Shown: positions 5,820 through 44,137 of the stretch, in pieces | Position numbering within the stretch: position 1 is the first letter of the stretch | Layout of the letters: the number at the start of each line of letters is the position of its first letter | Assembly: GCA_965223295.1 (NCBI GenBank) | Contig: CBDCWC010000002.1 | Coordinates: 512,001 to 576,000 of the forward strand | Source: Nitrospirales bacterium | Lineage (GTDB): Bacteria; Nitrospirota; Nitrospiria; Nitrospirales; UBA8639 | DNA: 64,000 bases | Reading direction: 5' to 3' | Notes under the pieces: generated by a model | Told to the model about the DNA's origin: nothing | Seen by the model: only the letters and a program-made list of their open reading frames with translations | Databases searched by the model: none | Made by a program: the position numbers and the translations under genes

Positions 5820-5861
5820 AAGACGTGGGGATGAGGCCTTTTTTTGCGAAGGAGGTATCTC

Positions 5862-8939: not shown

Positions 8940-8952
8940 ATAGAATGCATTG

Positions 8953-8977
8953 GGGAGCCGAGGGTAACTCGGTTCCC
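8953..8977 (+). terminator. GC-rich hairpin after surface-protein gene (no U-tract)
   Basis: GGGAGCCGAG-GGTAA-CTCGGTTCCC. Confidence 0.4.
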
Positions 8978-9500
8978 TGTGCGATGGCGAGAGAGATGAT
9001 CGGAGCGACCCTGAGGCACGCTCTGTGAAAGCCCTAGATCGAGAGGTCCTTGCGATAACCCTATAGCTTCCCGACTCTCTACAAGAATGATTTTGGAAAA
9101 AATTAAAGCCTCATGGCATAACTTTAGAAGTTGAGTCAAAAGATTTTGAGCTGTATTTTGGCACGAGGAGAAAGTGTATAGGTATTTATTAAATAGATAG
9201 AAGATCTTCCTAATTAATCCTTAAAAGATTTTTGTATAGTGAATATTGACACAAAAAAACTTTAAGCTAGCATTTCATATAGTTAAAAAATAGACTGTTG
9301 GCATCATCTAGAATTAGCCTGTTTAGGCTCCTTCCGTTTTAATTTTTTTCTTCATTATCGTTCTACAATTTCTGCTTTTTATTTTCAGGAATTCTGCTGT
9401 TTCTTTCCTTCAGTATTATCTTTTTTTCCCGAAAGATAAATGCAGACGTTAGTTTTTGGAATTGTAGCGAAAAATCTCTTCTAAAATTCAATTTTCAAGG

Positions 9501-9589
9501 TCTTTTCCCGATAAGGGAAGACTCATTGTGAGGTGAGGACGCAAAGCCACGGGTCAGTACCACTAAGAGCTGGGTTTTCGAATGATGAG
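9501..9589 (+). ncRNA. c-di-GMP-I riboswitch paralog, variant/degenerate
   Basis: Shares GTGAGGTGAGGACGCAAAGCCACGGGTCAG with the first copy, but GGGCAAAC becomes GGGAAGAC and GGGTTACCG becomes GGGTTTTCG. Confidence 0.75.
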
Positions 9590-9628
9590 AAGACGTGGAG
9601 GCGAGGCCTTTCCCCAGGGAGGTATTTC

Positions 9629-10252
9629 ATGTTCAATGTTTACTCGAAACCTTCTATTCAAAAATCCTTGGTTGTATTTGGGTTGTGGTGTGGTCTGATT
9701 CTTTTCCCTGCATCCGTTCAATCTGCCGAAACGTTGAAATGGGATGCGAATACTGAAACAGATTTAGCTGGATACATTCTTTATCAAGGTATAACAGAAG
9801 GGTCCTATGAAACTCCGATAGATGTCGGGAATGTCACAAGTTACACGGTGTCGGATCTTGAACCTGGTATGACTTACTATTTTGCGGTCACGGCTTATGA
9901 TACAGGTGGGAACGAAAGTGGTCCTTCCAATGAAGTGAGTGTATACAATGCGGCTGCCACTTCTCAGCTATCAGTATCTGTGAGTGGTAATGGCATTGTT
10001 GTTAGCAATCCCGGTGGAATCCGTTGTGCAAGTGGCATTTGTTCCGCTTCCTATGAGACTGGTAGCGTCATTTCGTTAACACCTGAAGCCAGTCATAAGT
10101 GGAGTTTTTCTGGTTGGACTGGCGCATGTAGTGGAAGTGGGGAGTGTGTGGTTCAGCTGTCGAAAGACCAGGTTGTGGAGGCTATTTTTTCTAAGACTAG
10201 TCCTGGAGGGGGAGGGAAAGGCGGTGGAAGAGGCGGTGGGCGAAATAAGTGA
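9629..10252 (+). CDS. secreted FN3 + divergent InlB B-repeat-like domain protein, paralog of the 5862 gene N-terminus
   Basis: GGAGG RBS; signal peptide and FN3 closely match the 5862 gene; LSVSVSGNGIVVSNPGGIRC..FSGWTGACSG..CVV; Gly/Lys/Arg-rich tail. Confidence 0.85.
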   Translation: MFNVYSKPSIQKSLVVFGLWCGLILFPASVQSAETLKWDANTETDLAGYILYQGITEGSYETPIDVGNVTSYTVSDLEPGMTYYFAVTAYDTGGNESGPSNEVSVYNAAATSQLSVSVSGNGIVVSNPGGIRCASGICSASYETGSVISLTPEASHKWSFSGWTGACSGSGECVVQLSKDQVVEAIFSKTSPGGGGKGGGRGGGRNK

Positions 10253-10525
10253 ATTCTTTGAAGAGAGATCATGGTCGAATTGCAACGGATTGTTAAGGAA
10301 AATGTTTTCACGAAAGCGTAAAAATGAAATTGCCTTGTGCACGAGTAGAGGTACCCTTGTCTAGTCGACTTCGTTTTTCTAGACCTGACCGTTCCTATTT
10401 TATTTTCATAATCTTTCTATAAAATTTATCGTAGAATCATTCAGGAGGGCTTAAAGAGTTTGAATGTCTATTACGTCTTTTGGCGGGTAGCAATGTGAAC
10501 AATTAACGTCTAATCTTGAGGGTGA

Positions 10526-10593
10526 ACGCACATCCTCCTGTGTGTGGCCAGAGGAAGGTTGATTTCGATCAATCGGCCTCTGGCCATTTTTTT
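10526..10593 (+). ncRNA. candidate small RNA 3' module (anti-SD loop hairpin + intrinsic terminator)
   Basis: ACGCACA-TCCTCC-TGTGTGT, then TGGCCAGAGG..CCTCTGGCCA-T7, about 270 bp from any gene end. Confidence 0.4.
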
Positions 10594-10805
10594 ATCCTGC
10601 CGACCTGTCTTTCCTGCCCTAACTAACTTTGGAAAATGATCTACAATCATTCATGCTTCTCAGCCCCATAAGCATCAGAGGACAGACGCAAGTGAACTCA
10701 TCACACCCTCATAGTGCTCGTGGCTTCATGAAAGTAAATCCCTAGGTGGCGGTAGGATCTTAGCTAGATAGAAGAGCAAAATTTGAAAATAGTCCTATGG
10801 GCGGG

Positions 10806-10834
10806 TTGGAAAGAAGGTAGAGGGGCAATATGCT
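10806..10834 (+). promoter_or_regulatory. sigma70-like promoter upstream of STAS gene leader
   Basis: TTGGAA-N17-TATGCT. Confidence 0.45.
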
Positions 10835-10870
10835 CTGAAAATACATTCCTTTTATACCCATATATAGATG

Positions 10871-10912
10871 GGGGCTGCTTGGATAGAGCTATATTCAGGT
10901 GGCTCCTTTTTT
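10871..10912 (+). terminator. intrinsic terminator in the leader of the STAS gene
   Basis: GGGGCTGCTTGGA..TTCAGGTGGCTCC followed by T6. Confidence 0.55.
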
Positions 10913-10933
10913 ATTGCAGGAAGGAATAATACA

Positions 10934-11287
10934 ATGCCAAAGAAAGAACATGTCATGCGTTGGAGTTTCCAAGTCTTCCCACATGCCATTCTCATTCGAA
11001 TCTTTGGAGTTATGGATCAAACATTAAGTCAGATGTTCGAAGAGGCTACGGAACGTGCGATGAAATTCAATGATCGACAAGTGGTGATTGACTTTTCTGA
11101 TGTTGAAGCTGTGGATCCTATCGGGCTGGTGCTCTGTGGGTATGGCCTCCATCATTTTCAACAACTCAGCATTCCTGTAGCACTGGTACGACCTCCTGCT
11201 TCTCTCCTTCCTGTTTTGAAGGAACATGGTTTGCCTGAAATTCCTCAAGTGTTCCAACAAAAAGAGCTTGTAACTGGGCGTAATTAA
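10934..11287 (+). CDS. STAS-domain (anti-sigma factor antagonist-like) protein
   Basis: IRIFGVMD..VVIDFSDVEAVDPIGL STAS signature; AGGAAGG RBS before ATG 10934. Confidence 0.7.
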   Translation: MPKKEHVMRWSFQVFPHAILIRIFGVMDQTLSQMFEEATERAMKFNDRQVVIDFSDVEAVDPIGLVLCGYGLHHFQQLSIPVALVRPPASLLPVLKEHGLPEIPQVFQQKELVTGRN

Positions 11288-12345: not shown

Positions 12346-13200
12346 TTAAGCTACCCGTTCAAATACAATCGGGATCTGCTGTCCAATAGCCGAATGCCTT
12401 CTCCGGCGATTGTAATACGTTTCAATATACTCAAAAATACTGATCTTCGCCGTCTGTCGCGTCGGGTACGGCACTCGATGAATCAGTTCGACTTTCAGTG
12501 TATGGAAGAAACTCTCTGTGACGGCGTTATCATAACAAGTCGCTCGTCGTCCCATGCTACAACGCAACTGACTGTTTGCAATCAATTGTTGATAGCGTGT
12601 TGAGCAATACTGGCTTCCACGATCAGAGTGGAGGATGGTGCCTTTGGGAAAGCCACGACGGAACAACGCCATGCTTAGGGCATCACATACCAGTTGTTGC
12701 GTCATGCGTTGGTTCATCGACCACCCTACAATCGCTCGTGAATACAAATCCATCACGACCGCGAGATAGAGCCAACCCTCGTGCGTCCACACATAGGTGA
12801 TGTCACTGGTCCACTTCTGATTTGGGGCCTCAGCCCGAAAGTCCTGTTCCAGCAGATCGGGGGCGACTGGGTTGGAGTGTTTCGAGTTGGTTGTGGCTTT
12901 AAATTTCTTCGCCTGAATCGCTTTGAGTCCCAGAGCCTGCATTCGTCGGGCCACGCGATGCTCGCTACACTTGCGGCCCTCATGGTGTAAAGTCTTCGTG
13001 ATCCGTGGCGCGCCATACCGTTGGCGGTGCTCAGTAAAGATTTCGCGTATCCGTCGATCAAGTTGATGATTCGAGTGCTCCGGCGGACTCTGGCCACGTG
13101 CGGCCCAGTCATAATAGCCACTGCGAGAGACGTTCAGAACCCCACACATGAGGGTGACAGGCCAGGCCTTCTTCTGTTTCTCGATGAATCGATACCTCAT
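12346..13200 (-). CDS. IS3 transposase OrfB (DDE integrase core)
   Basis: WTSDITY, HSDRGSQY, DNAVTESFF; RYGAPRI HTH_21 region. Confidence 0.95.
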   Translation of the reverse strand: MRYRFIEKQKKAWPVTLMCGVLNVSRSGYYDWAARGQSPPEHSNHQLDRRIREIFTEHRQRYGAPRITKTLHHEGRKCSEHRVARRMQALGLKAIQAKKFKATTNSKHSNPVAPDLLEQDFRAEAPNQKWTSDITYVWTHEGWLYLAVVMDLYSRAIVGWSMNQRMTQQLVCDALSMALFRRGFPKGTILHSDRGSQYCSTRYQQLIANSQLRCSMGRRATCYDNAVTESFFHTLKVELIHRVPYPTRQTAKISIFEYIETYYNRRRRHSAIGQQIPIVFERVA

Positions 13201-21218: not shown

Positions 21219-23558
21219 ATGTTTCACAGGCAAGTCTCCGTGAATCTGATCTCTGAACATTTGCCAGAATCTCGGAAATTCCCACGAGCCAAACCGGCTG
21301 TGGAATCGCCAGCGGACAACTCATCCAAAACAGAATCAGCGCAAAAACGTCAACGGCGTCATTATATGCCGGTTTGGATTGTTCTGGTTCTCCTGCTGCC
21401 GTGTATTGCTTTGACCATTTATTATGCGCGGTATGGCCTCTCGGGCCCACTGCTTCCTGATTCGATCCTTCCGAGTCCTAGTTATGCTTTAGTACTCTTT
21501 CTTGTCTATTTAGATAGCGTGGGTTTGGTTGTGCTCACGCTCTTGCTCTCCCGCAATTTAATCCGGGCCTTTTTTGAAAAACGGAATAAGTTATTAGGGT
21601 CAGGGTTTCGATCAAAATTAGTGGCAGCGTTTATTGGATTTGCTCTGATCCCTACGGTCCTCCTCGCCCTGGTAGCCAGCGGAGTGATTAGTGAAGTGAT
21701 TGATGTGTGGTTTAGCGATCAAGTTATGCATGTGTTGCGAGATTCCGAAGATGTTGCACATTTATACCAAGAGGAACGAGAAGCCTTAGCCTCTGACACG
21801 GCTCGGGTCATTAGCAAAGAAATTTTTCGAGAGGATATTTTACGGCCTGAACATCGTGAATTGCTAAAATCCGTCTTGGTCAGGATGCAACATGAATATC
21901 ATCTAGCAGGAGTCGAAGTATTTTCTCCGAAAATGGAAACCCTGGCACGAAAGATGGATCCTCAGTTATCTGATGCGGTCTTGAGTTTGCCGGTTGGACA
22001 ATTGGTCTTGCAAGTGTTGGATAGAGGAAAAGCGCAGACTTCGGCACAGGAAGCCCCGGTTGGAAAATTGATTCGTGCGGCGGCTCCAATCATGGGCACT
22101 GGGAGGGGTGCGCAAGTACGTGGTGTGGTAGTCGTGTCGTCCTATGTGCCTGAATCACTATTGCGAAAAATGGATGCGATTGCTAAGCAATTTGACGAGT
22201 ACCGTCAGATTAAATCCATGAAAACTCCCATTAAGGGGGGGGCGTATCTTTTTGTCGGGGTTGTCACCTTGCTCATTTTATTTGGCGCAACATGGTTTGG
22301 GTTTTATGTGGCTCGGGGTATTACCGTACCCATTCAACGCTTAGCCGAAGGAACCGAAGCGATTGCCAAAGGACATTTAGATATTAATATTGATGTGAAA
22401 GCCACAGATGAAATCGGTACGCTGGTCCAATCGTTTAATCGCATGACCACGGATTTGCGCACGAATAAATCGCGGTTAGAGGAAATGAACTTATCGCTGA
22501 TTCAGTCAAATGTGGAAATTGACCAACGCCGGGCCTATACCGAAGCCGTCGTAGAAACGATTGCCGCAGGGGTCTTGTCTATTGATATGTCTGGACTGAT
22601 TACCAGATTTAATCCGTCCGGCGAACGTATTCTTGGCGTTCAAGGAGAGGAGTTGCGTGGGCGGCCTGTTTATGAAGCCTTTAAGCAATTTAATTTGTAT
22701 TTGTTTCAGAAGGCTTATGACCAAATGCTTGTGGAAGAAACGGATAGTTTGTCGATGGAAGGGCAGATGGAAACCCCCAATGGACGGCTCTTGACCTTAG
22801 GCCTCAGTATTTCCAGAATGCAAAACGAAGCAGGCGAGAACTTAGGGTTTGTGTTTGTGTTTGAAGATCGCACGGAGTTCATCAAGGCCCAAAAAACCGC
22901 CGCTTGGCAGGAAGTGGCTCAACGGATTGCCCATGAAATTAAAAATCCGTTGACGCCCATTCAATTGTCTGCTCAGAGGTTGCGTAAAAAGTTTTTTGAA
23001 AAATCGGCAGGCTTTGAAGAAATATTTGATCAGTCTACCGGTGTCATCATCAATGAAGTGACGAGCTTAAAAGGCATGGTCGATGAATTTTCGAAGTATG
23101 CCCGTATGCCGTTGCCTCAAATGTCCCGGCAATCATTGCATGACATTATTCAGAAAGTGATCTCTCTCTATACTGGAGCGCACCGTGATGTAAAATTTGT
23201 CGTGGAATTTGATGAAGGGCTTCCTGATTTGAATTGTGACCCTGAGCAGATGCGGCGGGTCTTTGTGAATCTCTTTGATAACGCTATTCAGGCTATTAAC
23301 GATCGAGGGCATGTTTGGGTGACGACTAAGGCAGATTGGCGGCGGCATCGTGCTATTGTGCACGTAGCTGATGATGGCATCGGTATTCAATCGGACGACC
23401 AAGAAAAGTTATTTGTGCCCTATTTTTCTAAGAAACGAACTGGGACTGGGCTGGGTTTAGCCATTGTGCATCGTATTATTTCTGATCACAATGGCACGAT
23501 CCATGCCGAAAATAATCATCCACAGGGTGCGCTATTTCGGTTTGACTTGCCTTTGTGA
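21219..23558 (+). CDS. ntrY: NtrY-like sensor histidine kinase (HAMP, PAS, HisKA, HATPase)
   Basis: AAWQEVAQRIAHEIKNPLTPIQLSAQRL, GTGLGL; four TM helices. Start uncertain. Confidence 0.8.
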   Translation: MFHRQVSVNLISEHLPESRKFPRAKPAVESPADNSSKTESAQKRQRRHYMPVWIVLVLLLPCIALTIYYARYGLSGPLLPDSILPSPSYALVLFLVYLDSVGLVVLTLLLSRNLIRAFFEKRNKLLGSGFRSKLVAAFIGFALIPTVLLALVASGVISEVIDVWFSDQVMHVLRDSEDVAHLYQEEREALASDTARVISKEIFREDILRPEHRELLKSVLVRMQHEYHLAGVEVFSPKMETLARKMDPQLSDAVLSLPVGQLVLQVLDRGKAQTSAQEAPVGKLIRAAAPIMGTGRGAQVRGVVVVSSYVPESLLRKMDAIAKQFDEYRQIKSMKTPIKGGAYLFVGVVTLLILFGATWFGFYVARGITVPIQRLAEGTEAIAKGHLDINIDVKATDEIGTLVQSFNRMTTDLRTNKSRLEEMNLSLIQSNVEIDQRRAYTEAVVETIAAGVLSIDMSGLITRFNPSGERILGVQGEELRGRPVYEAFKQFNLYLFQKAYDQMLVEETDSLSMEGQMETPNGRLLTLGLSISRMQNEAGENLGFVFVFEDRTEFIKAQKTAAWQEVAQRIAHEIKNPLTPIQLSAQRLRKKFFEKSAGFEEIFDQSTGVIINEVTSLKGMVDEFSKYARMPLPQMSRQSLHDIIQKVISLYTGAHRDVKFVVEFDEGLPDLNCDPEQMRRVFVNLFDNAIQAINDRGHVWVTTKADWRRHRAIVHVADDGIGIQSDDQEKLFVPYFSKKRTGTGLGLAIVHRIISDHNGTIHAENNHPQGALFRFDLPL

Positions 23559-23658
23559 TACAGGCGGTTGTTCTTGGCTGAGCAGTGCCTGAATCGAGGA
23601 GGTTGAGCTTGCATGTGGCTATGAAATTCCTATTCATGCCTTTGATGAAGGAGGTCTA

Positions 23659-25032
23659 GTGGCAGAATCAATTTGTATTGTCGATGATGAACCAGCCATT
23701 TTACATTCCCTGAGTAATATTCTTGAAGACGAAGGGTATCAGGTTATTGTCGCCACCAATGGGGTTGAAGCCATGAAAGTTGTCCGCAGCGACTCTCCGG
23801 ATCTGGTCATTCTGGATATTTGGATGCCGGAGATGGATGGCTTAGAAACATTGAAGCGATTGCGTTCTCAGCATCCTGGGATACTTGTTGTCATGATGTC
23901 TGGCCATGGTTCCATTGAGACTGCCGTCAAAGCGACCAAATTAGGTGCCTATGATTATTTGGAAAAACCGTTAGATTTAGAAAAAGTGACTATTTTCGTC
24001 CGTAATGCTTTGCACCAAAGGAAACTGGAAGAAGAAAATCTCAATCTTCGTATTCAAGTAGAACGACGGTTTGAGTTGGTCGGGTCTTCCCCAACGATGA
24101 ATCGTCTTCGAGACATGATTGAGATGGCAGCCCCGGCCAACAGCCGGGTCTTAATTTCCGGAGCCAATGGGACAGGGAAGGAACTTGTGGCCCGTGCAAT
24201 TCATTTGCAAAGTCCACGGCACAATCGTCCGTTTGTTGAAATTAATTGTGCGGCCATTCCGGAAACCTTGATTGAAAGTGAATTGTTCGGCCATGAAAAA
24301 GGCGCGTTTAGCGGCGCGACTGCGATGAAGCGTGGTAAGTTTGAATTGGCTGACGGCGGTACATTATTTTTGGATGAAATTGGCGATATGAGTTTAGCCA
24401 CACAAGCCAAAGTCTTGCGAGTGCTACAGGAACAACAATTTACGCGGGTAGGTGGGACCAAATTGTTAAATGTCCAAGTCCGCGTCATTGCGGCATCAAA
24501 TAAAGATTTGGCTGAAGAAATCGGCAAAGGCAATTTTCGAGAGGATTTGTATTATCGACTGAATGTACTGCCCATTGTTGTGCCGCCCCTCAAAGAACGA
24601 CGTGAAGATATTCCCGCTCTTGCGCAACATTTTCTCAAAATGCATTCTGAGGAACAGGGGATGAAGCCTAAAGAGTTTAATGCCCAAGGCCTGGAAGCTC
24701 TTGCACGACATGATTGGCCTGGGAATATTCGAGAACTTCGTAATCTAATTGAGCGTTTGTTGATCATGGTGCCAAAGCCGGTCATTGATGCCCCAGACGT
24801 GGAAATGTTTTTGCAAGGTCGAGCGTCCAGTGGTGTGCCAGCGCTGTCCGTTGGCACGAACTTTGATTCTCTTCGAGAAGCCAGAAATGTATTTGAGCGG
24901 GAAGTGATTTCTCAAAAGCTGAGAGAAAATAATTGGAATGTCTCGAAGACTGCTGATGAGTTGAAAATTGAACGTAGCCATTTACACCGAAAGATCAAGC
25001 TTCTCAATGTCGAACTCCGGCCTGAACATTAA
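23659..25032 (+). CDS. ntrX: NtrX-like sigma54-dependent response regulator
   Basis: REC (LDIWMP), GANGTGKE, ESELFGHEKGAFSGA, C-terminal Fis HTH; follows NtrY-like kinase. Confidence 0.8.
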   Translation: MAESICIVDDEPAILHSLSNILEDEGYQVIVATNGVEAMKVVRSDSPDLVILDIWMPEMDGLETLKRLRSQHPGILVVMMSGHGSIETAVKATKLGAYDYLEKPLDLEKVTIFVRNALHQRKLEEENLNLRIQVERRFELVGSSPTMNRLRDMIEMAAPANSRVLISGANGTGKELVARAIHLQSPRHNRPFVEINCAAIPETLIESELFGHEKGAFSGATAMKRGKFELADGGTLFLDEIGDMSLATQAKVLRVLQEQQFTRVGGTKLLNVQVRVIAASNKDLAEEIGKGNFREDLYYRLNVLPIVVPPLKERREDIPALAQHFLKMHSEEQGMKPKEFNAQGLEALARHDWPGNIRELRNLIERLLIMVPKPVIDAPDVEMFLQGRASSGVPALSVGTNFDSLREARNVFEREVISQKLRENNWNVSKTADELKIERSHLHRKIKLLNVELRPEH

Positions 25033-33756: not shown

Positions 33757-33944
33757 GGACTGTTGAATGATGAAGATATCAACGACCAAATTTGATCTCT
33801 ACAATGTGACATGTTTGAAGCCTCGGGTTGTTCAAAAAGGTCCGTCCACTAAGGCTGCAGCCATTTTTGCGTGCGGAGCGTCCTGGTATTACGTGAGCAC
33901 GGGAAAATGGCGAGAACACTGCTGGCGGCTTTTTTCAACAGACC
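33757..33944. repeat. MITE-like intergenic repeat, copy 1
   Basis: Outer TIR GGACTGTTGAA / TTCAACAGACC; core 33825-33944 similar to 35347-35468. Confidence 0.75.
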
Positions 33945-33957
33945 TTAAATGTATAGT

Positions 33958-34878
33958 TTAAGGTGTGGATTGAGAAAGAGATCCCGTGATGTGGAATGCT
34001 GGGCTGGCTTCGCCCATATAGAGAGTTCTGTGGGGAAAAGGGATTTCAATCTTTTCGCGATCAAAGGCCTTTTTCAGGCGCCGTCGATATTCTCGTCCTA
34101 CCGACCATTGTTCAATGGGGCGTGTCTTGATTCGAGCCTTGATCGTGACTTCTGATTCTCCGAATGCATCCACCCCGAGGATTTCAATGGGTTCAAGGAT
34201 TTTCTTGCGCCAGAGCTCATCCTGTTGTAATTCCGCTCCCACCGATCGCATGATGTCCGTGACATGGTCTGTATCTTCTTTGTATGCCACGCCAATATCC
34301 ATGACATAGGCTGACCAATTCTTGGTCATATTGGCTAATGTCGTCACGGTCCCATTTGGAAAAATATGGACGGTTCCGGATAAGTCACGCAAGGTAATGG
34401 TGCGAAAGCTAATGGCTTCGACTAGGCCGCCTGTGCTGTTGACAACGGCCACATCACCGACTCGGACTTGGTTTTCTAGGATCATAAAAAATCCGTTGAT
34501 GACGTCGCGTACCAAATTTTGTGCACCAAATCCTACGGCTAATCCGACGATACCCGCTCCTGCTAAAACCGGGGCGATGTCCAAGCCTAATTGATCCAAC
34601 CCCATGACCACTGCAATGACCCAGATCAAAGTAAGGCAAATCGTGCGGACTAAACCTATAAGCGTTTTAATTTGTTTTTCATTGGCAAGGCGTTCTTTGT
34701 CGTCATCTTCACGCCAGAGAAGCAAGAAGTGTTCGAGTTTATTGAGTCCAAAGCGAGCTGCCCTAATGGCCATATAGGCGACGATTCCAATCAACAGAAT
34801 TCTGAAGCTTGTTTCCATGATGACCATGGAATTTTTGGCGAGAAATGGCGAGAGTTGTTCGGTGAGAAATTGATCCAT
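33958..34878 (-). CDS. mscS: small-conductance mechanosensitive channel (YbiO/YkuT-like MscS family)
   Basis: LAGAGIVGLAVGFGAQNLVRDVINGFF..VGDV..FPNG..IEIPFP. Confidence 0.88.
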   Translation of the reverse strand: MDQFLTEQLSPFLAKNSMVIMETSFRILLIGIVAYMAIRAARFGLNKLEHFLLLWREDDDKERLANEKQIKTLIGLVRTICLTLIWVIAVVMGLDQLGLDIAPVLAGAGIVGLAVGFGAQNLVRDVINGFFMILENQVRVGDVAVVNSTGGLVEAISFRTITLRDLSGTVHIFPNGTVTTLANMTKNWSAYVMDIGVAYKEDTDHVTDIMRSVGAELQQDELWRKKILEPIEILGVDAFGESEVTIKARIKTRPIEQWSVGREYRRRLKKAFDREKIEIPFPHRTLYMGEASPAFHITGSLSQSTP

Positions 34879-35100
34879 CACACGTACTCCTTTTTCCTGT
34901 TTGTTATACAACTTTGAGGTTGCTTCATCTTGTCAAGACGCATTTCTTTGTTATTCTTACAAGTGTCAGGGCCAATGCCAAGTCGATCACTCTGATAAAC
35001 TGTTTCTCCCAGCGCTCAAAAAAGAATATCTCAGGCGGAGAGTTTCTTGATTCATTTTCATGAACGGAGACAAGACTCTACGGTTGGGACAAAATTTCTC

Positions 35101-35129
35101 TTGACACATTATCATTTCAATGGTAAAAA
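35101..35129 (+). promoter_or_regulatory. sigma70 promoter of the nitrogen operon
   Basis: TTGACA-N17-TAAAAA with TG extension. Confidence 0.65.
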
Positions 35130-35145
35130 AATATTTACAATTGAT

Positions 35146-35238
35146 GAGTTGAAACAACGACGTTTTAACTCTCAAACCAATAGAAGCCGGACGATGAAGT
35201 CCTCAACCAGCGAAAATCTGGGTGAGGGCTTTTTTTTT
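35146..35238 (+). promoter_or_regulatory. ANTAR-type dual hexaloop hairpin overlapping an intrinsic terminator
   Basis: P1 GAGTTGAAAC-AACGAC-GTTTTAACTC; P2 GGAC-GATGAA-GTCC; terminator AAGTCCTCAACCAG..CTGGGTGAGGGCTT + T run. Confidence 0.7.
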
Positions 35239-35278
35239 GCTGTTTCAATCTATCGTTGATACAAGTTTTTGACATTTA

Positions 35279-35468
35279 GGGACTGTTGAATAATTTAATT
35301 TCAAGATACGAAAACGCTTTCAGTGCAGTGGAGACTTCGATGCGACGGGAATGGTCAAAAAAGTCCGTCCAGCAAGGCCGCAGCCACTGTTGTGCGCGGA
35401 GGGTACTGGTCTTACGTGAGCACGAAACAATGGCGAGAACGCCGCTGGCGGCTTTTTTCAACATTCCC
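35279..35468. repeat. MITE-like intergenic repeat, copy 2
   Basis: Outer TIR GGGACTGTTGAA / TTCAACATTCCC; inner GGGAATGGTCAAAAAAG at 35347. Confidence 0.75.
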
Positions 35469-35570
35469 TTTTAGAATGTGAGATTAGCAGGTCAGGAAAA
35501 AGGTATATGGCGCATGCCTCTACATTCAGATGGCAGCATGGACGTGGCTATCGTAACCAAGGAGAGATGA

Positions 35571-36713
35571 ATGAAGAATCATGGTATGAATCGAGCAACC
35601 AGTGACGGCATGATGCGGAAAATAAGTCATCTGGGCTTGTTCACTATGATGGCAGGAATGCTCGTTCTGGGGGCTGCGATGGTAGGCCAGGCTGCTTTAT
35701 TGACGAAAGAGGATTTTAATTTTTATGGGTATGTGGAAGCCTCCTACACGCATAATTTCAAAAATCCAAATTCACAGACGAATAATCTGCGTATCTTTGA
35801 TGTGGATGCCAATTCATTTCGGCCGCATCTGGCGCAATTGGTATTTGAAAAAGAAGCAAAGTCAGATGGTGAATTGATCGACCGTGCAGGTTTTCGCACG
35901 AAACTTAATTTTGGTAGAGATGCCCAACTGACTGGAGGTTCAGGGTCGGATGATGTGGATTTTCAGGAAGCTTATATTCAGTACATAGCCACGATCGGTA
36001 ATGGCTTGGATCTACGTATTGGCCGGATGAATACGTTAATTGGCTATGAAGTGATTGAAAGCCCATTGAATCCAAACTTTTCTCGGTCCTGGCTTTTCGG
36101 CCTGGGTGAACCTTTTACCACAACAGGCATTCGAGCTTCCTATCAGTTTACCGACATGGTCGCACTTTCCGTTGGTTTGGTGAATGCGTGGAATGGCGCC
36201 ACTTCAGATTTTAACCGTAGCAAATCGGTTGAAGCCCTACTCGGTCTGACGCCGATGGACTGGCTGAGTGTATCGCTCTTTGGGTTCTGGGGCCCAGAAG
36301 GCGCCGTGGGGGCAAAGAACTCTGATCTTGGTCAAGCAGGTGGGATTATCACAGCCCAGGTTTCAACGCAAACTTCTCTCGTTCTTGAAGGCTACTGGGC
36401 TGAACAGGAAAATGGAGTGGCGGGGAGAGATGCGCAATGGCATGGGATAGCGGGGTACGTGATCCATGATTTTGACGATCAATGGGGGATGCGGCTTCGT
36501 ACGGAATGGTTTAAGGATGCTGATGGGTTTCTCACTGGAAGGGATCAAAAACTTTGGGAGGGAACCATCACCGCTCAATATAAACCTGTTCCCTATTTAA
36601 TTACACGTTTAGAATTTCGTTATGACAAATCAAATCGCAAGTCTTTTCAATATGGAGCGCGTCGGGTCGATCATCAAGAAACGCTCGCCACTGAAGTGAT
36701 TTTTCTTTTTTAA
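35571..36713 (+). CDS. outer-membrane beta-barrel porin (BBP2/OmpL-like)
   Basis: Signal peptide; FYGYVEASY, FQEAYIQ, IGYEVIESPLNPNFSRS, RLEFRYD; terminal Phe. Confidence 0.8.
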   Translation: MKNHGMNRATSDGMMRKISHLGLFTMMAGMLVLGAAMVGQAALLTKEDFNFYGYVEASYTHNFKNPNSQTNNLRIFDVDANSFRPHLAQLVFEKEAKSDGELIDRAGFRTKLNFGRDAQLTGGSGSDDVDFQEAYIQYIATIGNGLDLRIGRMNTLIGYEVIESPLNPNFSRSWLFGLGEPFTTTGIRASYQFTDMVALSVGLVNAWNGATSDFNRSKSVEALLGLTPMDWLSVSLFGFWGPEGAVGAKNSDLGQAGGIITAQVSTQTSLVLEGYWAEQENGVAGRDAQWHGIAGYVIHDFDDQWGMRLRTEWFKDADGFLTGRDQKLWEGTITAQYKPVPYLITRLEFRYDKSNRKSFQYGARRVDHQETLATEVIFLF

Positions 36714-36817
36714 GATCAGAGGAAAAGCGCACCTGAGGCTTTTTAATCAAATTTGAGGAGCATGAGGTTTTGAAATGACAGAGGATGTGGCGACTCAAGC
36801 TGCCCATGATTCTGTAA

Positions 36818-37225
<408 letters not shown>

Positions 37226-37279
37226 TGAGTATTATTTTTTCTATCTAATCGTCATATGTGATTGTTTGAAGGAGACAGT

Positions 37280-38584
37280 ATGAAGGTATCTCGCGTATTT
37301 CTACAGATAGGGTTGTTCCTAATATTAGTCCTGAGTATAGGGGAATCCTCTCTGGTGTTTGCAGAGGGAGTCGGATTAAAAATTGATACGGGTGATACGG
37401 CCTGGATTTTAATGTCTTCTGCATTGGTCTTATGCATGATGCTCCCTGGATTGGCGTTATTTTATGGAGGATTAGTTCGGAGTAAAAATGTGTTGGGAAC
37501 TATCATGCATACGGCAGTGATCTTATGTTTGATTACGCTAGTTTGGGTGATTTGTGGATATAGTCTCGCGTTTGGTCCTGATATCGGCGGCGTGATTGGA
37601 AGCTTAGCTTGGGTAGGGTTGCAAGGCGTTGGTATGGATCCCAGCCCAGATTATGCTTCAACGGTTCCTCATCAAGTATTCATGGTGTTTCAGCTCATGT
37701 TTGCAGCGATTACCGTTGCTCTTATGACAGGGAGCTTTGCTGAGCGCATGAATTTTAAAGCATTACTTATATTTTCAGTTGCATGGTCCGTGTTTATTTA
37801 TTCGCCATTAGCGCACTGGGTATGGGGTGGAGGTTGGTTACAACAAATGGGGGCTTTAGATTTTGCGGGAGGGGCGGTTGTACACATTAGTTCTGGGTTC
37901 GGTGCTTTGGTTGGTGCCCTGATGGTTGGTCCTCGCAAAGGATTTGGAAAAGAGCCGATGCCACCACATAATTTACCTATGACTGTATTGGGAACTGGTT
38001 TATTGTGGTTTGGATGGTTTGGATTTAATGGGGGGAGCGCCTTAGGTGCCAATGGCGGAGCCGGAGTGGCCTTTATTGCCACGCATATCGCAGCAGCGGC
38101 TGGTGGGTTAAGTTGGATGGCGGCTGAATGGGTGCATCGAGGCAAACCTACTGTTCTGGGAATCGCCAGTGGGATTATTGCTGGGTTGGCCACCATTACT
38201 CCAGGAGCCGGATTCGTCGGGCCCATGGCAGCGATCATCATTGGTCTTGTTGCTGGGACGATGTGTTATGTCGCGGTTGTCTGGAAAATGAAGTTAGGCT
38301 ATGACGACTCGTTGGACGTCGTGGGCATTCATGGGGTCGGCGGTCTAATAGGTATTCTGGCAACAGGGCTCTTTGCATCTGTAGGGGCAACAGGTCTGTT
38401 TTTTGGGAATGCGGACTTGTTCGGTATACAAGTCTTTCTGGCTTTGGTAACCTTAGCGTTTTCAGTTGTGGGTACCTATCTTATTCTCAAAATTGTTGAT
38501 CTGACAATTGGTCTTCGCATATCCCCGCAAGACGAAGAAATGGGCTTGGATTTGAGTCAACATAGCGAACGAGCCTATTCTTAA
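37280..38584 (+). CDS. amtB: ammonium transporter
   Basis: PGLALFYGG, FQLMFA, DFAGGAVVH, WFGWFGFNGGS, DDSLDVVGIHG. Confidence 0.96.
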   Translation: MKVSRVFLQIGLFLILVLSIGESSLVFAEGVGLKIDTGDTAWILMSSALVLCMMLPGLALFYGGLVRSKNVLGTIMHTAVILCLITLVWVICGYSLAFGPDIGGVIGSLAWVGLQGVGMDPSPDYASTVPHQVFMVFQLMFAAITVALMTGSFAERMNFKALLIFSVAWSVFIYSPLAHWVWGGGWLQQMGALDFAGGAVVHISSGFGALVGALMVGPRKGFGKEPMPPHNLPMTVLGTGLLWFGWFGFNGGSALGANGGAGVAFIATHIAAAAGGLSWMAAEWVHRGKPTVLGIASGIIAGLATITPGAGFVGPMAAIIIGLVAGTMCYVAVVWKMKLGYDDSLDVVGIHGVGGLIGILATGLFASVGATGLFFGNADLFGIQVFLALVTLAFSVVGTYLILKIVDLTIGLRISPQDEEMGLDLSQHSERAYS

Positions 38585-38672
38585 TTGAAGAAATTGTAGT
38601 TGGGCTAAGCCACAGATATGAACAAGAGTTGAGTTTTTATAAATGACTATTTCAGACGAAGGAGGTATGTGA

Positions 38673-40082
38673 ATGACCCCGAAAGAAGTATTGGATTTTG
38701 CCAAAAAGAACAAGGTAGAAATGGTTGACCTGAAATTTATTGATTTGGTTGGAACATGGCAGCATTTTTCAATACCAACCTCAGAATTATCCTTGGACTT
38801 ATTTAAAGAAGGGTCCGGTTTTGATGGTTCATCAATTCGTGGATGGAAGGCGATTCAAAACAGCGACATGTTGATGGTGCCGGATCCAAATACCGCTCGT
38901 TTGGATCCCTTTACGGAGATTCCCACGCTCAGTATGGTTGGAAATGTTCAAGATCCCATCACCCGTACGATTTATGAACGCGATCCCCGCGGCGTGGCTA
39001 TGCGAGCCGAGCAATATCTTAAGAGCACCAAGATTGGTGATACTTCCTACTGGGGGCCTGAAGCTGAATTTTTTATTTTTGACCATGTGAGTTTTGAACA
39101 AAATAGCCATTCCGGTTATTACTTTGTGGATTCGGAAGAAGGTATTTGGAATTCAGGAAAGGATGGAGAAAATTTGGGGTCTCGACCTCGGCACAAGGAA
39201 GGGTATTTTCCTGTTTCCCCCGTGGATTCCCAGCAAGATATTCGTTCAGAAATGTGCCGAGAAATGGAAAAGGCGGGTATTCGAGTTGAAAAACATCATC
39301 ATGAAGTGGCCACGGCGGGTCAAGGGGAAATTGATCTCCGCTTCGATACGCTCCTCAAAATGGCGGATCAGATGATGATGTATAAATACATTGTCCGCAA
39401 TGTGGCTCGTCGTCATGGGAAAACAGCCACGTTTATGCCGAAACCCGTTTTCGGAGACAATGGCACAGGCATGCATACTCACCAAAGCATTTGGAAAGGA
39501 GGTAAGCCAAATTTTGCTGGAAAAGATTATGCCGGTGTGTCACAACAATGCTTGTATTACATTGGTGGGATTCTCAAGCATGGTCCAGCCTTAGCCGCGT
39601 TAACGAATCCAACAACAAATTCCTATAAACGGTTAGTGCCAGGGTTTGAAGCTCCCGTGATGCTGGCCTATTCCAGCCGTAACCGTTCAGCGGGGATTCG
39701 AATTCCGATGTACTCCCCAAGCCCCAAAGCCAAGCGGATCGAAGTGCGATTCCCCGATCCTTCTTGTAATATGTATTTGGCGTTTAGCGCGATGTTAATG
39801 GCAGGGTTGGATGGCATTCAAAATAAAATTCATCCGGGTGAAGCCATGGATAAGAATCTTTACGATTTAGAGCCTGAAGAATTAGGCAATATTCAAACCT
39901 TGCCGTCGAATTTAGAAGATGCTTTAGATAACCTTGCCAATGACTATGAATTTCTCTTGAAGGGTGGAGTCTTCAGTGAAGATTTAGTTGAGGCGTGGAT
40001 TACCTATAAACGAGACAATGAAGTGGATCCCATGCGTCTCCGTCCGCATCCCCATGAATTCTTCATGTATTACGACGTGTAA
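38673..40082 (+). CDS. glnA: glutamine synthetase type I (adenylylatable)
   Basis: [34 protein letters not shown], adenylylation site NLYDL. Confidence 0.98.
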
Positions 40083-40168
40083 ATTACAGTAAAGAGTGAG
40101 GAGTAAGGGGGTTAGGAGAAATTCTGAGTTCCTTTCTCCTCCTCTGCTTCCTTTCTCCTCTTTATTTC

Positions 40169-42424
40169 TCACTGTTGACTTGAGAATCGCCAAAGAAACC
40201 GTTCATGAATCTGCTTCATTCGTGAATGCGTCGTTTTTTCAAACGCTTCCGCACTTTTTTGCCAGTCTCTTGACGTCATGCCCAAACGGCGAGCCAAGAA
40301 TACCATTTCATCAGATCCCGAAGGAGGCAGCACTAAGTCTTTGGCATGTCCCCGCACAATTCGCAAGCCATCAATGAGTTGCCGAAGAAAGATATAGTCA
40401 TCATGTAACGTTTCTCTCTCTGATAATGTGAGAATGGATTCGTGACAAAGTTGTTCAATGGCTTCTAGTGTATTGGGTGTTCGAATTGAAGGATGAGCAT
40501 GGCCATGTATCAGTTGGAGATATTGAACGGTATACTCCACATCGATGAGCCCGCCAGGGCTGTACTTGACATTCGTCGCACCAGGTTGAACTAATTCGGT
40601 TATTTGGCGTTGACGCAGATTGAGCGCAAGACCTAAATCCCACGGGTCTGGCCCATACACGAACTGATTTCTATGGGTTTCAACAGCTTTTCCGACGCGA
40701 GAGTTTCCAGCAATGAAACGAAGCTTGATGAAGGCTTGCCGTTCAAATGGGGCGGCCCCTCCCTGACTGCGATAATACTGTTGAATTTCTTCTACGGTGT
40801 TGGCCAATGTGCCTTTGTCACCATTCGGACGAAGCCGGGTATCGATATGAAAAATACCTTCCTGTTTGGCTTCGATCCATTGCAGAAATTCTTGTGCCCA
40901 TCGTTCAAAAGTATCGGCGGACATTCGAACAATGTTCCGTTTCTCAGTGCGTTGAGGATTGGCGTAGACAAATAAAATTTCAATATCTGACGCATACCCC
41001 AGTTCGCCTCCACCTAATTTCCCTAACCCAAAGATCGCCATGGGAATCGAAGAGGTCCGTGAGGCTTTAGGCTGAATCACTCGATATGATTGTTCGAGTG
41101 CATGATTCAGGATGACATCAGCCAAATTTGTTAAGGCCTGGGAAAAATCGTGAAGAGAACTATTTTCTAAAAGGTGCCGCATATCGATACGAAAAAGTTC
41201 TTCATCTTTCACTTGATTTAAACGCTGCTTTCTTTGCGCAATGGTTTTTGCCGGCAGCAAAGCTTTTTCGAGACTTTTGCTTAAAGTCGTTTTTGAGCGA
41301 ACCAACGATCCTTTTTGATACCGCTGCATCATAGGCAATAGGTTGTCATGCTGACGGCGTAGTAAGTCTTCCCACAGATAGTCGCTGCTTCCAAACAGTT
41401 GAGCCAGGTTTCCCATAGTGGATCCTTTACTCAAAATGGCAAGGGTAGCCCCCTTTTTCGGTTGCTCTAATAATTGATCGAGAAATTGATCAAAATGATC
41501 CAGAGCTTTTCCGGGGTCAGGAGCCCAACTTAAATAATGCGTGAATTCTTTTAATAAGACGGCAGCCGTTCGTAGTTCTTGTTGTTCCTGTTTACGTAAA
41601 ATTCTTCTTCCATGGCGGTCGTGAATGTAGAGACGATTCAAGACTTGTGTGCCTTTGACTTCAATTTTTGCTTTCACCAAGTAAATGCCTCGCATGGCCA
41701 AGGCATTTGCAAATGTATATAAAAAGGCAGGCGTATCAGTTGAGCGAATATCCAAAATAGTATTCGGAGAAGATGCACTGTTCGAAAAGGTAAGATGAAC
41801 GGGATGGAGTAAATCAACGGTTTTTCTTTTTCCTTTTTCCATATGTTCAATGAGTCGGCGGTTAACAGAACGACGAGCCTGGCGTACCTGATTCTTCTGT
41901 AACAAGAGGAGAAGAGAGACCAACATCTGTTGGAAGTCTTGTTGAACAGATCTCTCAAATGGAGAATCTTTTTTCGCTTGGACTTCAAAGACGTCGACTG
42001 CGATTTTCCGAGATAATCGTCCTGATGACCGTCGTACAGGGAGGGATTTCCAGGCCTGCAAGGTTTTTGATCTGTGAATGGGTACAGGTGGTGCGGCAGA
42101 GGTTGGAGTAGAGGTAAAAATGGCTGCCTCTCGTATGTCCAGCCCAAACGAGGCAAGTATGCCGCAGAGAGTGGCAAACTCAGAAAAATAATCGTAGGCG
42201 ACGATGTGAATATGATAGCGCCGCGATGGAAGTGTGTTGATGGTCAACGCACAAGTTTGTTCGAACGTGAGTTGATGGACCATGTTTGCATGTTGGCTTA
42301 TGACCTCAGAAGAAAATTGCTCTAAATAATCTTGGTCCATTTGCGTGATATAGTCTTGGAGAAAAGAGGAGGGTAAATGAGGAGACAGTTGTTCGAGGCG
42401 TTCAATGAGGACAGAGGAATTCAT
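40169..42424 (-). CDS. glnE: GlnD-type ACT-ACT module fused to a GlnE adenylyltransferase-like domain
   Basis: ACT1 IVAYDYFSEFATLCG..IREAAIFT; ACT2 IRSTDTPAFLY..; GKLGGGELGYASDIE, IDTRLRPNG, VKYSPGGLIDVEYTVQ. Confidence 0.85.
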   Translation of the reverse strand: MNSSVLIERLEQLSPHLPSSFLQDYITQMDQDYLEQFSSEVISQHANMVHQLTFEQTCALTINTLPSRRYHIHIVAYDYFSEFATLCGILASFGLDIREAAIFTSTPTSAAPPVPIHRSKTLQAWKSLPVRRSSGRLSRKIAVDVFEVQAKKDSPFERSVQQDFQQMLVSLLLLLQKNQVRQARRSVNRRLIEHMEKGKRKTVDLLHPVHLTFSNSASSPNTILDIRSTDTPAFLYTFANALAMRGIYLVKAKIEVKGTQVLNRLYIHDRHGRRILRKQEQQELRTAAVLLKEFTHYLSWAPDPGKALDHFDQFLDQLLEQPKKGATLAILSKGSTMGNLAQLFGSSDYLWEDLLRRQHDNLLPMMQRYQKGSLVRSKTTLSKSLEKALLPAKTIAQRKQRLNQVKDEELFRIDMRHLLENSSLHDFSQALTNLADVILNHALEQSYRVIQPKASRTSSIPMAIFGLGKLGGGELGYASDIEILFVYANPQRTEKRNIVRMSADTFERWAQEFLQWIEAKQEGIFHIDTRLRPNGDKGTLANTVEEIQQYYRSQGGAAPFERQAFIKLRFIAGNSRVGKAVETHRNQFVYGPDPWDLGLALNLRQRQITELVQPGATNVKYSPGGLIDVEYTVQYLQLIHGHAHPSIRTPNTLEAIEQLCHESILTLSERETLHDDYIFLRQLIDGLRIVRGHAKDLVLPPSGSDEMVFLARRLGMTSRDWQKSAEAFEKTTHSRMKQIHERFLWRFSSQQ

Positions 42425-42493: not shown

Positions 42494-44137
42494 ATGAAAT
42501 CCTCATCGACTCGGCACATCTCAAAACACACCAGTAAAAAGGTAAAAACGCAGGTCATTTTTCCTGATCCAACTCCAATCCTCCTGGCCTCTGATCTTGC
42601 TCCACAAAAGGTCGCACAGTTGCTACAAGCTTTCGGGATTCAGGATTGGAAACGGGCCGATTTGAATCTTCAAGCGATGGCCGGCGAACCGAATACACGC
42701 AAGATCTTAGCAGATTTTCTTCCTTCTCTTTTGGCGACCGTGGCGAAGACCGCTGACCCTGATCAAGCTTTGAATGAATGGGAACGGTATGTGGATTCTG
42801 GCATTCACCGCCTCCAATTGTTTCAGTATTTGATAGCGGTCCCTCATCTTGTTGAGGTGTTAGGGACGGTGTTTGGCAACAGTCAAGCGATGGCACAGAC
42901 GCTCATCCGAGATCCACTCTTAGTGTATTGGATTGAAGATGACCGAGTCTTAGTCCGACGGCAAACACGATCAAATTTGTCAGGGTCGATACAAACGGTA
43001 CTGGCAGGAGTGAAGAGCTTTGAGGGTAAATGCGAAGCCTTGAGACGATTCAAACGACGGGCAATGCTTCGCCTTGGCATTCGTGATCTGCTTGGTATTG
43101 CTACTCCCATTGAAACGTATACAGCACTATCGGATGTAGCCGCAGGGGTGATTCAGGCCGCGTATGAACTTGTGGAGCAAGAGCTCCAGCGGCAGCATGG
43201 GGACTGGGGGGAGCAAACCCCTATGAAAAGGAAAAAACGAATAGGTTTTTCTGTGCTGGCCATGGGAAAACTTGGTGGGTGGGAATTAAATTATAGTTCA
43301 GATGTTGATCTGATTTATGTCTATCAGGCTCCAGAAAGCAATACGAACGCAGGAATAGGGCAGCGGTCTCTCTTAGGTTCAGATTATTTTCATGCTGTAG
43401 CCAGAGAACTGACGAATGTGTTGTCTGCTTCAACGGCCGAGGGAGCTTTGTTTCGAGTAGATATGCGTTTGCGTCCGGAAGGGCAGGTCGGGGCATTAGC
43501 CTGTTCGGTAGAAGATGCCTGTCATTATTATCAAACACGGGGGCGAACTTGGGAACGTTTAGCATTCTTAAAGGCCAAGCCTATTGCAGGGGATATTCGA
43601 ATAGGGCAATCACTCATCCGAAAATTGGGAAAATTTGTGTATGGAGGCCCTGACACCGCTCCTCAGGTCTTCTCAGAGATTCGTGTTCTTCGTTCTCAAA
43701 TGGTGTCCAAAATGACTCGTAAAGGAGAGCTGCAACGCAATGTAAAGTTAGGCACGGGCGGTATTCGGGAAATTGAGTTTATCGTGCAAAGTCTTCAGTT
43801 GCGGTGGGGCTATCGGTATAGCAGTATTCGTGACAGGCAAACGCTCAAAAGTTTATTGAAGTTGGTGAAGGTTGGAAAACTGAAAACGGAGGTCTTTCAG
43901 CAATTGAAGGAGTCTTATATATTTTTGCGAAATCTTGAGACAAAAATTCAAATGGTTCACGAGATTCAAACGCACTTGTTACCTGCGAAAATTGAAGAGA
44001 TCGCTAAATGTGCCATTCGAGTGGGCTACCCCAAAGAAGATAACGTCAAACAGACCGCTGAGCATTTACTGATAGATTACCGTGGGCATACCCTAAGAGT
44101 TCACCAGCTTTACCGACAAATTGTCAAAGCGTCTTAG
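42494..44137 (+). CDS. glnE: stand-alone GlnE N-terminal (adenylyl-removase-like) domain protein
   Basis: LRRFKRR, AMGKLGGWELNYSSDVDLIY, FRVDMRLRPEG, WERLAFLKA, VKLGTGGIREIEFIVQ. Confidence 0.85.
   Translation: MKSSSTRHISKHTSKKVKTQVIFPDPTPILLASDLAPQKVAQLLQAFGIQDWKRADLNLQAMAGEPNTRKILADFLPSLLATVAKTADPDQALNEWERYVDSGIHRLQLFQYLIAVPHLVEVLGTVFGNSQAMAQTLIRDPLLVYWIEDDRVLVRRQTRSNLSGSIQTVLAGVKSFEGKCEALRRFKRRAMLRLGIRDLLGIATPIETYTALSDVAAGVIQAAYELVEQELQRQHGDWGEQTPMKRKKRIGFSVLAMGKLGGWELNYSSDVDLIYVYQAPESNTNAGIGQRSLLGSDYFHAVARELTNVLSASTAEGALFRVDMRLRPEGQVGALACSVEDACHYYQTRGRTWERLAFLKAKPIAGDIRIGQSLIRKLGKFVYGGPDTAPQVFSEIRVLRSQMVSKMTRKGELQRNVKLGTGGIREIEFIVQSLQLRWGYRYSSIRDRQTLKSLLKLVKVGKLKTEVFQQLKESYIFLRNLETKIQMVHEIQTHLLPAKIEEIAKCAIRVGYPKEDNVKQTAEHLLIDYRGHTLRVHQLYRQIVKAS

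Follow-up and report, generated by a model that had tools for sequence, protein, structure and literature searches.

The RNA substrate of ANTAR-domain antiterminators was defined as two small hexaloop hairpins with A at loop position 1 (A1) and G at loop position 4 (G4), the second hairpin (P2) overlapping a terminator (Ramesh et al. 2012, PMC3369931). A leader resembling this substrate was analyzed in a stretch of 64,000 nucleotides (nt) from a Nitrospirales bacterium (contig CBDCWC010000002.1, positions 512,001 to 576,000), referred to here as the window. The leader spans 35101-35238 and lies before genes encoding a porin, GlnK, AmtB and GlnA. It is likely to be a transcription-attenuation element of the ANTAR-substrate type, with an ANTAR protein as the most likely antiterminator.

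In the eutP leader of Enterococcus faecalis the closing pairs A27-U36 and C28-G35 were needed for induction in their sequence, not by pairing alone, and A1 mutations reduced induction (PMC3369931). The eut linker between the two hairpins is 5-12 nt long and linkers of 3 or 14 nt impaired induction. The hexaloop A1 and G4 are important in nasF (PMC3369931). In the EutV-RNA structure G4 is the sole base-specific contact and A1 makes no contact, and EutV no longer acts when the linker is lengthened by 20 bases (Walshe et al. 2022, PMC8934654, PDB 6WW6). The natural ANTAR-substrate matches in Table S2 of Ramesh et al. (PMC3369931) span 41-76 nt, and matches are found there before P-II, ammonium-transporter and glutamine synthetase genes in many bacteria. 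In Geobacter sulfurreducens, G. uraniireducens and a Geobacter sp. the matches precede genes for a hypothetical protein, P-II and an ammonium transporter and span 55-72 nt. Antitermination at the Geobacter nifH gene was described as GnfK/GnfR-dependent, and the published alignment of termination-like leaders includes the hypothetical-glnK-amtB operon (Ueki and Lovley 2010, PMC2995071).

An ANTAR-type switch before P-II/ammonium-transporter operons is already catalogued in Geobacter. The phylum Nitrospirota and a purely sigma70-type promoter were not found reported for such a switch in the literature searched. Nitrospira, Leptospirillum and Thermodesulfovibrio are absent from the supplementary tables of Ramesh et al. 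2012 (PMC3369931), and the text of a 2025 review (PMC12591593) does not mention Nitrospirota. A literature search on ANTAR and Nitrospira found nothing relevant.

The main nitrite oxidizers of soils, oceans and wastewater plants belong to the Nitrospirales, and the order also includes complete ammonia oxidizers. To our knowledge, the sensing and regulation of nitrogen assimilation are essentially uncharacterized in this order. The association of ANTAR proteins with nitrogen is known in Firmicutes, Actinobacteria and Proteobacteria, including Geobacter, and the leader would extend it to another phylum. The leader is a concrete and easily testable candidate control point for ammonium uptake and glutamine synthetase across the order, and would offer a first concrete entry point to nitrogen regulation in Nitrospirales. 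Its value lies more in nitrifier physiology, where it is a useful lead, than in RNA biology, where it is incremental.

Structure and conservation of the leader

The window has a G+C content of 46% and, judged by its sequence, comes from a member of the Nitrospirales and not from Geobacter. Relatives were found via the porin (587 at E≤1e-20). An alignment of the porin with 40 relatives was used as the query in a search of genome contigs. This yielded 80 loci, nearly all labelled as Nitrospirales or Nitrospirota, with porin identity to the window ranging from 93% (locus L001) down to 46%. These loci and the window together make up 81 sources.

All elements of the leader are on the plus strand. 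It begins with a sigma70-type promoter (35101-35129) comprising a -35 element TTGACA (35101-35106), a 17-nt spacer and a -10 element TAAAAA (35124-35129). The spacer ends in TGG, and its TG at 35121-35122 gives an extended -10. A consensus promoter scan skipped this promoter because the scan demands T at position 6 of the -10 element. The same simple promoter/terminator scan missed the leader terminator as well, and its counts in 34500-40500 were at chance level.

The first hairpin, P1, occupies 35141-35175. Its core (35146-35155 paired with 35162-35171) has 10 bp, including one G-U, and closes a hexaloop AACGAC at 35156-35161. An optional 4-bp extension pairs 35141-35144 with 35172-35175. The predicted energy was -10.0 kcal/mol for the core and -13.3 kcal/mol with the extension. 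The single-stranded linker to P2 is placed at 35176-35188; it is 13 nt long with P1 extended and 17 nt (35172-35188) if P1 stops at 35171. P2 (35189-35202) has the sequence GGAC-GAUGAA-GUCC, with 4 bp, a loop at 35193-35198 and an energy of -4.8 kcal/mol by itself. The intrinsic terminator (35196-35238) has a stem of 35196-35210 and 35218-35232, a loop CGAAAAU and a run of nine U residues at 35230-35238. Its 14 pairs join 35196-35205 and 35207-35210 with 35218-35221 and 35223-35232, leaving one A.G mismatch. The core of the stem is G35199-C35229, and the terminator energy ranged from -17.2 to -19.0 kcal/mol. An initial annotation made from the sequence alone had proposed the promoter, P1, the 17-nt linker, P2 and the 14-bp terminator at these positions, and all of these coordinates hold.

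RNAfold of 35136-35240 gave P1 and the terminator at -33.4 kcal/mol (z = -4.2), and none of 200 shuffles was equally stable. RNA truncated before the 3' arm of the terminator folded into P1 and P2. The seven bases 35196-35202, which are the last three bases of the P2 loop and the entire 3' arm of P2, belong to both P2 and the terminator. The two are therefore mutually exclusive, as the initial annotation had stated. Since the terminator is far more stable than P2 and has these bases in common with it, the terminator would be the default and read-through would need something that holds P2. A conditional terminator/antiterminator leader is well supported. Leader-peptide attenuation was considered and rejected, as the reading frame from the sole ATG in the leader ends after a single codon.

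In 75 of the 80 loci the region upstream of the porin has a P2-type hairpin and, after it, a T-run. Such a recurrence of the arrangement before the orthologous porin operon does not reflect chance. Three of the exceptions (L021, L026 and L059) have at most 122 nt upstream on the contig. In L033 the contig edge leaves just the 3' end of the terminator. In L067 the leader is on the opposite strand, before a second operon of the order porin-amtB-glnK-amtB-glnA, and tblastn had picked a divergent porin paralogue. BLAST of the upstream region showed that the entire leader is kept in close relatives, and that the P2-terminator segment has about 80-88% identity across nearly all loci. The arms of P2 and the terminator are conserved in sequence beyond what pairing needs, for example in GUCCUCARCC.

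An alignment of 74 leaders (A2) was made from the window and 73 loci. The loci left out were L021, L026, L033, L059, L067, L019 (a mismatched variant P1) and L077 (P1 loop deleted). In L077 the P1 hexaloop and part of the stem are gone at about 9733-9782 (GTCGAG-TGTCTCGGC) and P2 and the terminator are intact; P1 was either lost naturally or is missing through a fault in the assembly.

All 74 aligned leaders had TTGAC followed by A or T no more than 90 nt before the P1 loop, and 59 had a -10 of the form TAnAAn at the 17-nt spacing. The inner six pairs of P1 were paired in 95.9% of cells, with four pairs altered on both sides. The outer pairs of P1 covary (99 cells altered on both sides compared to 38 ± 7 in shuffles). 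Sliding the pairing partners by 1-3 columns dropped pairing to 37-49%. P2 had a hexaloop and all four pairs in every leader (100% of cells). In L049 and L057 a compensatory change of P2 to GGGC/GCCC was found and the terminator stays pairable. The terminator was paired in 94.6% of cells over 11 pairs and its overlap with P2 was kept in all 74 leaders. The RNAalifold consensus was independently P1 and the terminator.

Conservation of the loops in relatives had been set beforehand as a test, and G4 was present in 74/74 leaders in both loops. The P1 loop was a hexaloop in all leaders, with A1 in 68/74 (A in the window), a closing C-G in 74/74 and an adjoining A-U in 73/74. In P2 the closing C-G was found in 74/74 and the adjoining A-U in 72/74, with G-C in the other two. 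The P2 loop had A2 in 73/74 and A6 in 72/74. The window has G at position 1 of the P2 loop instead of A, a departure that the initial annotation had pointed out; G was present there in 58/74 leaders and A in 16/74. The linker was poorly conserved in both length and sequence. It ranged from 11 to 33 nt among loci with a correctly assigned P1 and was mostly 19-21 nt in relatives. The median loop-to-loop distance was 38 nt (range 29-50).

A covariance model (R1) was built from P1, the linker and P2, with the terminator not included. It found a single site in the window (56 bits, E 4.5e-12), and the runner-up had 11.7 bits. Among the loci one site of 32-65 bits was found in 75/80, including L067 and L077, which were not used for building the model. 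There were 21 other matches in the loci at E≤1, all at or below 23.4 bits, of which 20 were antisense echoes of the same leaders. In L067 two porin paralogues lie back to back (8426-9845 on the minus strand and 10043-11269 on the plus strand); the leader (51 bits) serves the minus-strand one, which has amtB-glnK-amtB-glnA behind it, and the other paralogue has no leader. A generic pattern was also scanned for, on both strands, in the window and in 1.44 Mb of related loci; it required two RNNGNN hexaloop hairpins closed by C-G, 22-51 nt from one another, and a T-run after them. All 71 matches were porin leaders, three of them duplicate or overlapping calls at the same sites.

Because the 5' leader is conserved and structured and places an expression platform ahead of nitrogen genes, it could also be a protein-independent riboswitch, whose P2 would be stabilized when a metabolite such as glutamine or 2-oxoglutarate binds the twin hairpins. 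However, the conserved bases are limited to the loops and closing pairs, and the variable linker leaves no junction or pocket. The P1 loop varies and the P2 loop is nearly fixed, so there is no loop-loop pairing. Rfam was searched with the whole window at gathering thresholds and with 34900-35700 at E≤10. No family was found for the leader, with three unrelated sub-threshold matches, and neither the glutamine riboswitch nor any other aptamer matched at E≤10. A riboswitch is very improbable.

The terminator could instead be partial and unregulated, setting a low basal level or giving insulation, with the upstream hairpins merely stabilizing the RNA. The thermodynamic dominance of the terminator and the lack of an identified regulator are consistent with this. 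It leaves unexplained, however, the invariant G4 in both hexaloops, the invariant closing pairs and the compensation in L049 and L057 that preserves the pairing of both P2 and the terminator. The chance that the terminator is unregulated is judged to be very small.

Proposed antitermination and the candidate effector

For the favored reading, an ANTAR-type antitermination switch, the following sequence of events is proposed. Transcription would start a few bases before P1 from a strong, probably constitutive sigma70 promoter. By default the RNA would fold into P1 and the stable terminator, and polymerase would stop at the run of nine U residues, leaving a transcript of about 100 nt. Under nitrogen limitation an activated RNA-binding antiterminator, most likely a dimer of an ANTAR-domain protein, would bind the P1 hexaloop first. 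It would next bind and stabilize the weak 4-bp P2 hexaloop hairpin. With P2 held, 35196-35202 would be withdrawn from the 5' arm of the terminator and the leftover hairpin would no longer abut the U tract. Polymerase would then continue into porin-glnK-amtB and possibly glnA. Nitrospirales probably turn on ammonium assimilation by protein-controlled read-through of this kind; both the signal and the identity of the protein are inferred.

The initial annotation had placed the operon under RNA antitermination rather than NtrC/sigma54. The RNA side of this claim stands, as the structure is conserved and covarying in 74 leaders. The second part was drawn from the missing -24/-12 site. Such a site is indeed absent, as no TGGCAC-N5-TTGC with up to two mismatches was found on the plus strand of 34912-35570. 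The exclusion of NtrC/sigma54 is at most tentative. The region 21219-25032, roughly 10 kb before the operon, encodes a histidine kinase of NtrY-like type and an NtrX-like, sigma54-dependent response regulator, with synteny kept in about 40 loci.

The leader has twin hexaloops, G4 in both loops, the closing A-U and C-G pairs and the overlap of P2 with the terminator, all as in ANTAR substrates. The G1 in P2 may be compatible with ANTAR binding, since in the EutV structure A1 makes no contact and G4 makes the sole base-specific one, but mutation of A1 did lower eutP induction. The short-spacing constraint may be specific to EutV, since the spans of natural matches include the 56 nt of the leader in the window.

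Several observations weigh against an ANTAR protein. At 17 nt in the window and, in most relatives, 19-21 nt, the linker exceeds the 5-12 nt of eut. The loops are 37 nt apart in the window (median 38 nt) compared to 24 nt in eutP, and the majority G1 of P2 departs from the published consensus A1. No second target of the leader type was found in the window or the sampled loci; the leader occurs once per approximately 20 kb sampled, so no regulon was detected. No ANTAR domain was found in the window by Pfam on 51 open reading frames (ORFs) of at least 110 amino acids (aa), with 11 unassigned ones rescanned at E≤1, which agrees with the initial annotation that the ANTAR gene is not in the window. 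No ANTAR family was found among the conserved neighbors within 10 kb of the 80 loci. For this search 3222 ORFs were clustered, drawn from the loci and from 21 kb of the window, and Pfam was run on 53 cluster representatives. The only conserved neighbor families were NtrY/NtrX-like, TrmA-like, PurM, PurN, Rrf2, DUF423, MscS, AmtB, P-II, glutamine synthetase, GlnE-like and ClpB. A phmmer search with three receiver domains of the window found 42 receiver-containing ORFs in the loci, of which just one was 330 aa or shorter. An ANTAR-motif pattern, which gives weak evidence, had 0 matches among ORFs of at least 80 aa in the 80 loci and the window. The term ANTAR is also absent from the supplements of two other Nitrospira papers, whose tables are perhaps partial gene lists.

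A gene table of Nitrospira moscoviensis lists one protein with GAF and ANTAR domains, NITMOv2_1249, encoded by a transcribed gene of 1263 nt (Mundinger et al. 2019, PMC6606698, Table_1). In this table the gene is directly upstream of the next one listed, NITMOv2_1251, which encodes a UrtA-like substrate-binding protein (NZ_CP011801 1174019-1176978; PMC6606698). At least one Nitrospira therefore encodes an ANTAR protein. The arrangement recalls the AmiC-AmiR and NasS-NasT pairs, and we take it to be a possible sensor/antiterminator pair.

The same conditional terminator might be opened by an RNA-binding protein without an ANTAR domain, such as an undescribed antiterminator or a factor controlled by P-II, that reads the GAC-RNNGNN-GUC hairpins. 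The conservation of the P2 and terminator arms beyond pairing needs would suit such a protein, as would hairpin spacing beyond the tolerance of EutV and the lack of an ANTAR gene in the window and in the flanks of the loci. However, apart from the spacing and the A1 of P2, each testable RNA feature fits an ANTAR substrate, including the A-U/C-G closing pairs and the invariant G4; the natural ANTAR matches bracket the 56 nt seen here; and the Nitrospira protein stands against it as well. A non-ANTAR protein is considered unlikely. On the evidence taken together, an ANTAR protein is the best-supported and most likely candidate for the effector.

A broader proposal is that in Nitrospirales antitermination is the sole control of the entire ammonium-assimilation module of porin, GlnK, AmtB and glutamine synthetase, which would be transcribed from a constitutive sigma70 promoter. 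A one-component GAF-ANTAR protein like NITMOv2_1249 would then be the effector, and not a two-component REC-ANTAR regulator. The wide spacing and the G1 of P2 would mark a distinct geometric subclass of ANTAR substrate, and the abundant terminated leader could also act as a small RNA. This combination is speculative and, taken as a whole, doubtful.

The operon and its neighborhood

The first gene of the operon (35571-36713, plus strand) encodes an outer-membrane beta-barrel porin of BBP2/OmpL-like type (Pfam PF07642, E 5e-66). It is followed on the same strand by glnK (36887-37225), encoding a P-II protein (PF00543, E 9e-32), amtB (37262-38584), encoding an ammonium transporter (PF00909, E 3e-127), and glnA (38673-40082), encoding a type I glutamine synthetase (PF00120 and PF03951). 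The glnK ORF was listed from a TTG at 36821, and the ATG at 36887 suits the P-II domain, which begins at residue 23 of the long ORF. The initial annotation had taken the four genes as one operon. All four genes were borne out by Pfam, and it is plausible that glnA is on the same transcript as porin-glnK-amtB, because no convincing terminator-like site was found within 35460-40082. The next such site is at 40200-40228. The glnA gene was in the same neighborhood in 69 of the 81 sources, and in one locus inspected (L067) it lies behind the amtB genes on the same strand.

Two divergent genes directly after glnA (40169-42424 on the minus strand and 42494-44137 on the plus strand) each encode GlnE and GlnD_UR_UTase domains. 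The glutamine-synthetase adenylyltransferase is apparently split into two proteins, and the family was in the same neighborhood in 51/81 sources.

The distance from the U-run of the terminator to the porin start varied from 6 to 479 nt across loci and was 333 nt in the window. Just 6-34 nt separate the end of the U-run from the porin match in L022, L034, L060 and L061. In L034 and L061 a ribosome-binding site (AAGGAG) and an ATG follow within about 25 nt of the U-run. This spacing leaves no room for another promoter, so in these relatives the operon must be transcribed through the terminator.

The need for read-through argues against a purely independent small RNA gene, in which the promoter, hairpins and terminator would mainly yield a trans-acting product of about 100 nt and the place beside the porin operon would be secondary. 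A dual role is also possible. The strong promoter and terminator, the high sequence conservation of the 3' hairpin, and a distance to the porin start that varies widely and tolerates the insertion of a repeat would all fit a small RNA gene. There was also a weak, sub-threshold resemblance to NsiR1 (16 bits against a gathering threshold of 39, E 2.2). Apart from the genomes without room for a separate porin promoter, it speaks against this that the unit is always directed into the operon and moved with it in L067, that the GGAC arm of P2 is unneeded for the terminator yet is invariant or compensated, and that no Rfam family matched. A mainly independent small RNA gene is thought to be quite unlikely, and the ANTAR-type leader remains preferred.

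The 333-nt gap in the window is due to an inserted palindromic repeat of about 120 nt (35347-35470, plus strand), which the initial annotation had missed. It lies between the leader terminator and the porin gene, inside the read-through transcript, and is not part of the conserved leader. L001 aligns with the window on either side of 35280-35469 and not across it. A second copy in the window (33829-33940) has 85% identity to the first. Further copies were found at other sites, in both orientations, in intergenic regions of L001 (7677-7766), L002 (18691-18786), L008 (12465-12588), L013 (7912-8030), L030, L054 (11674-11795), L058 (three copies) and L066. The repeat folds as one long hairpin (-52.7 kcal/mol with z = -3.6 at 35347-35470, and a second value of -46 kcal/mol) and ends in GCCGCUGGCGGC-U6. 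It matches no Rfam family and looks like a dispersed element of the miniature inverted-repeat transposable element (MITE) or repetitive extragenic palindromic (REP) kind. A second terminator-like site, GCCGCUGGCGGCUUUUUU (approximately 35440-35458), was rejected as a part of the switch. It is the end of the repeat, and its U-run pairs with an upstream A-run.

The conserved gene order upstream is NtrYX, TrmA-like, PurM, PurN, Rrf2, DUF423 and MscS, followed by the leader. Further upstream, an IS3-family transposase ORF (rve, HTH_21) at 12346-13200 on the minus strand indicates a mobile element about 22 kb from the operon. Two cyclic di-GMP-I (c-di-GMP-I) riboswitch aptamers were found at 5737-5813 and 9506-9582; one is of the GGC variant, scoring 70.9 bits, and the other is standard, scoring 39.4 bits. 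After each of them a large secreted-type protein carrying Big_7/fn3/PKD domains is encoded (5844-8939 and 9533-10252).

Comparison with described systems

The 74 natural variants show what may vary in an ANTAR-type substrate, namely position 1 and the spacing, and what may not, namely G4 and the closing pairs. In the NasR/nasF system of Klebsiella, the AmiR/amiE system of Pseudomonas and the NasT-type systems, ANTAR antiterminators likewise act on leader terminators of nitrogen-source genes. Their signals are nitrate/nitrite or amides, received by way of NIT, AmiC or NasS partners, and their targets are genes for alternative nitrogen sources, whereas the Nitrospirales targets are the core ammonium uptake and glutamine synthetase genes.

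The published eutP leader of the E. faecalis EutV/EutW system has two hexaloops with A1 and G4, A-U then C-G pairs identical to those found here, P2 within the 5' arm of the terminator and the terminator as the default. In the Nitrospirales leaders the loops are 37-38 nt apart compared to 24 nt and the linker is 17-21 nt compared to 5-12 nt; they also have a long P1 (8-10 bp) and, in most cases, G1 in P2. The genes controlled in E. faecalis are for ethanolamine use, whereas those in Nitrospirales are for ammonium assimilation.

In the published description of the Geobacter sulfurreducens GnfK/GnfR system, which has a REC-ANTAR regulator, a leader terminator likewise lies before an uncharacterized or outer-membrane gene followed by glnK and amtB, and the theme of nitrogen assimilation is the same. 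The conserved element there is CAGGCAANGGCGCC, so the P2 stem sequence differs, as does the phylum. No GnfR-like gene was found in the Nitrospirales sequence examined, that is, the window and the loci. The Geobacter promoters are described as depending on RpoN, with GnfL/GnfM as activators and antitermination as a further layer, whereas the Nitrospirales promoter is near-consensus sigma70.

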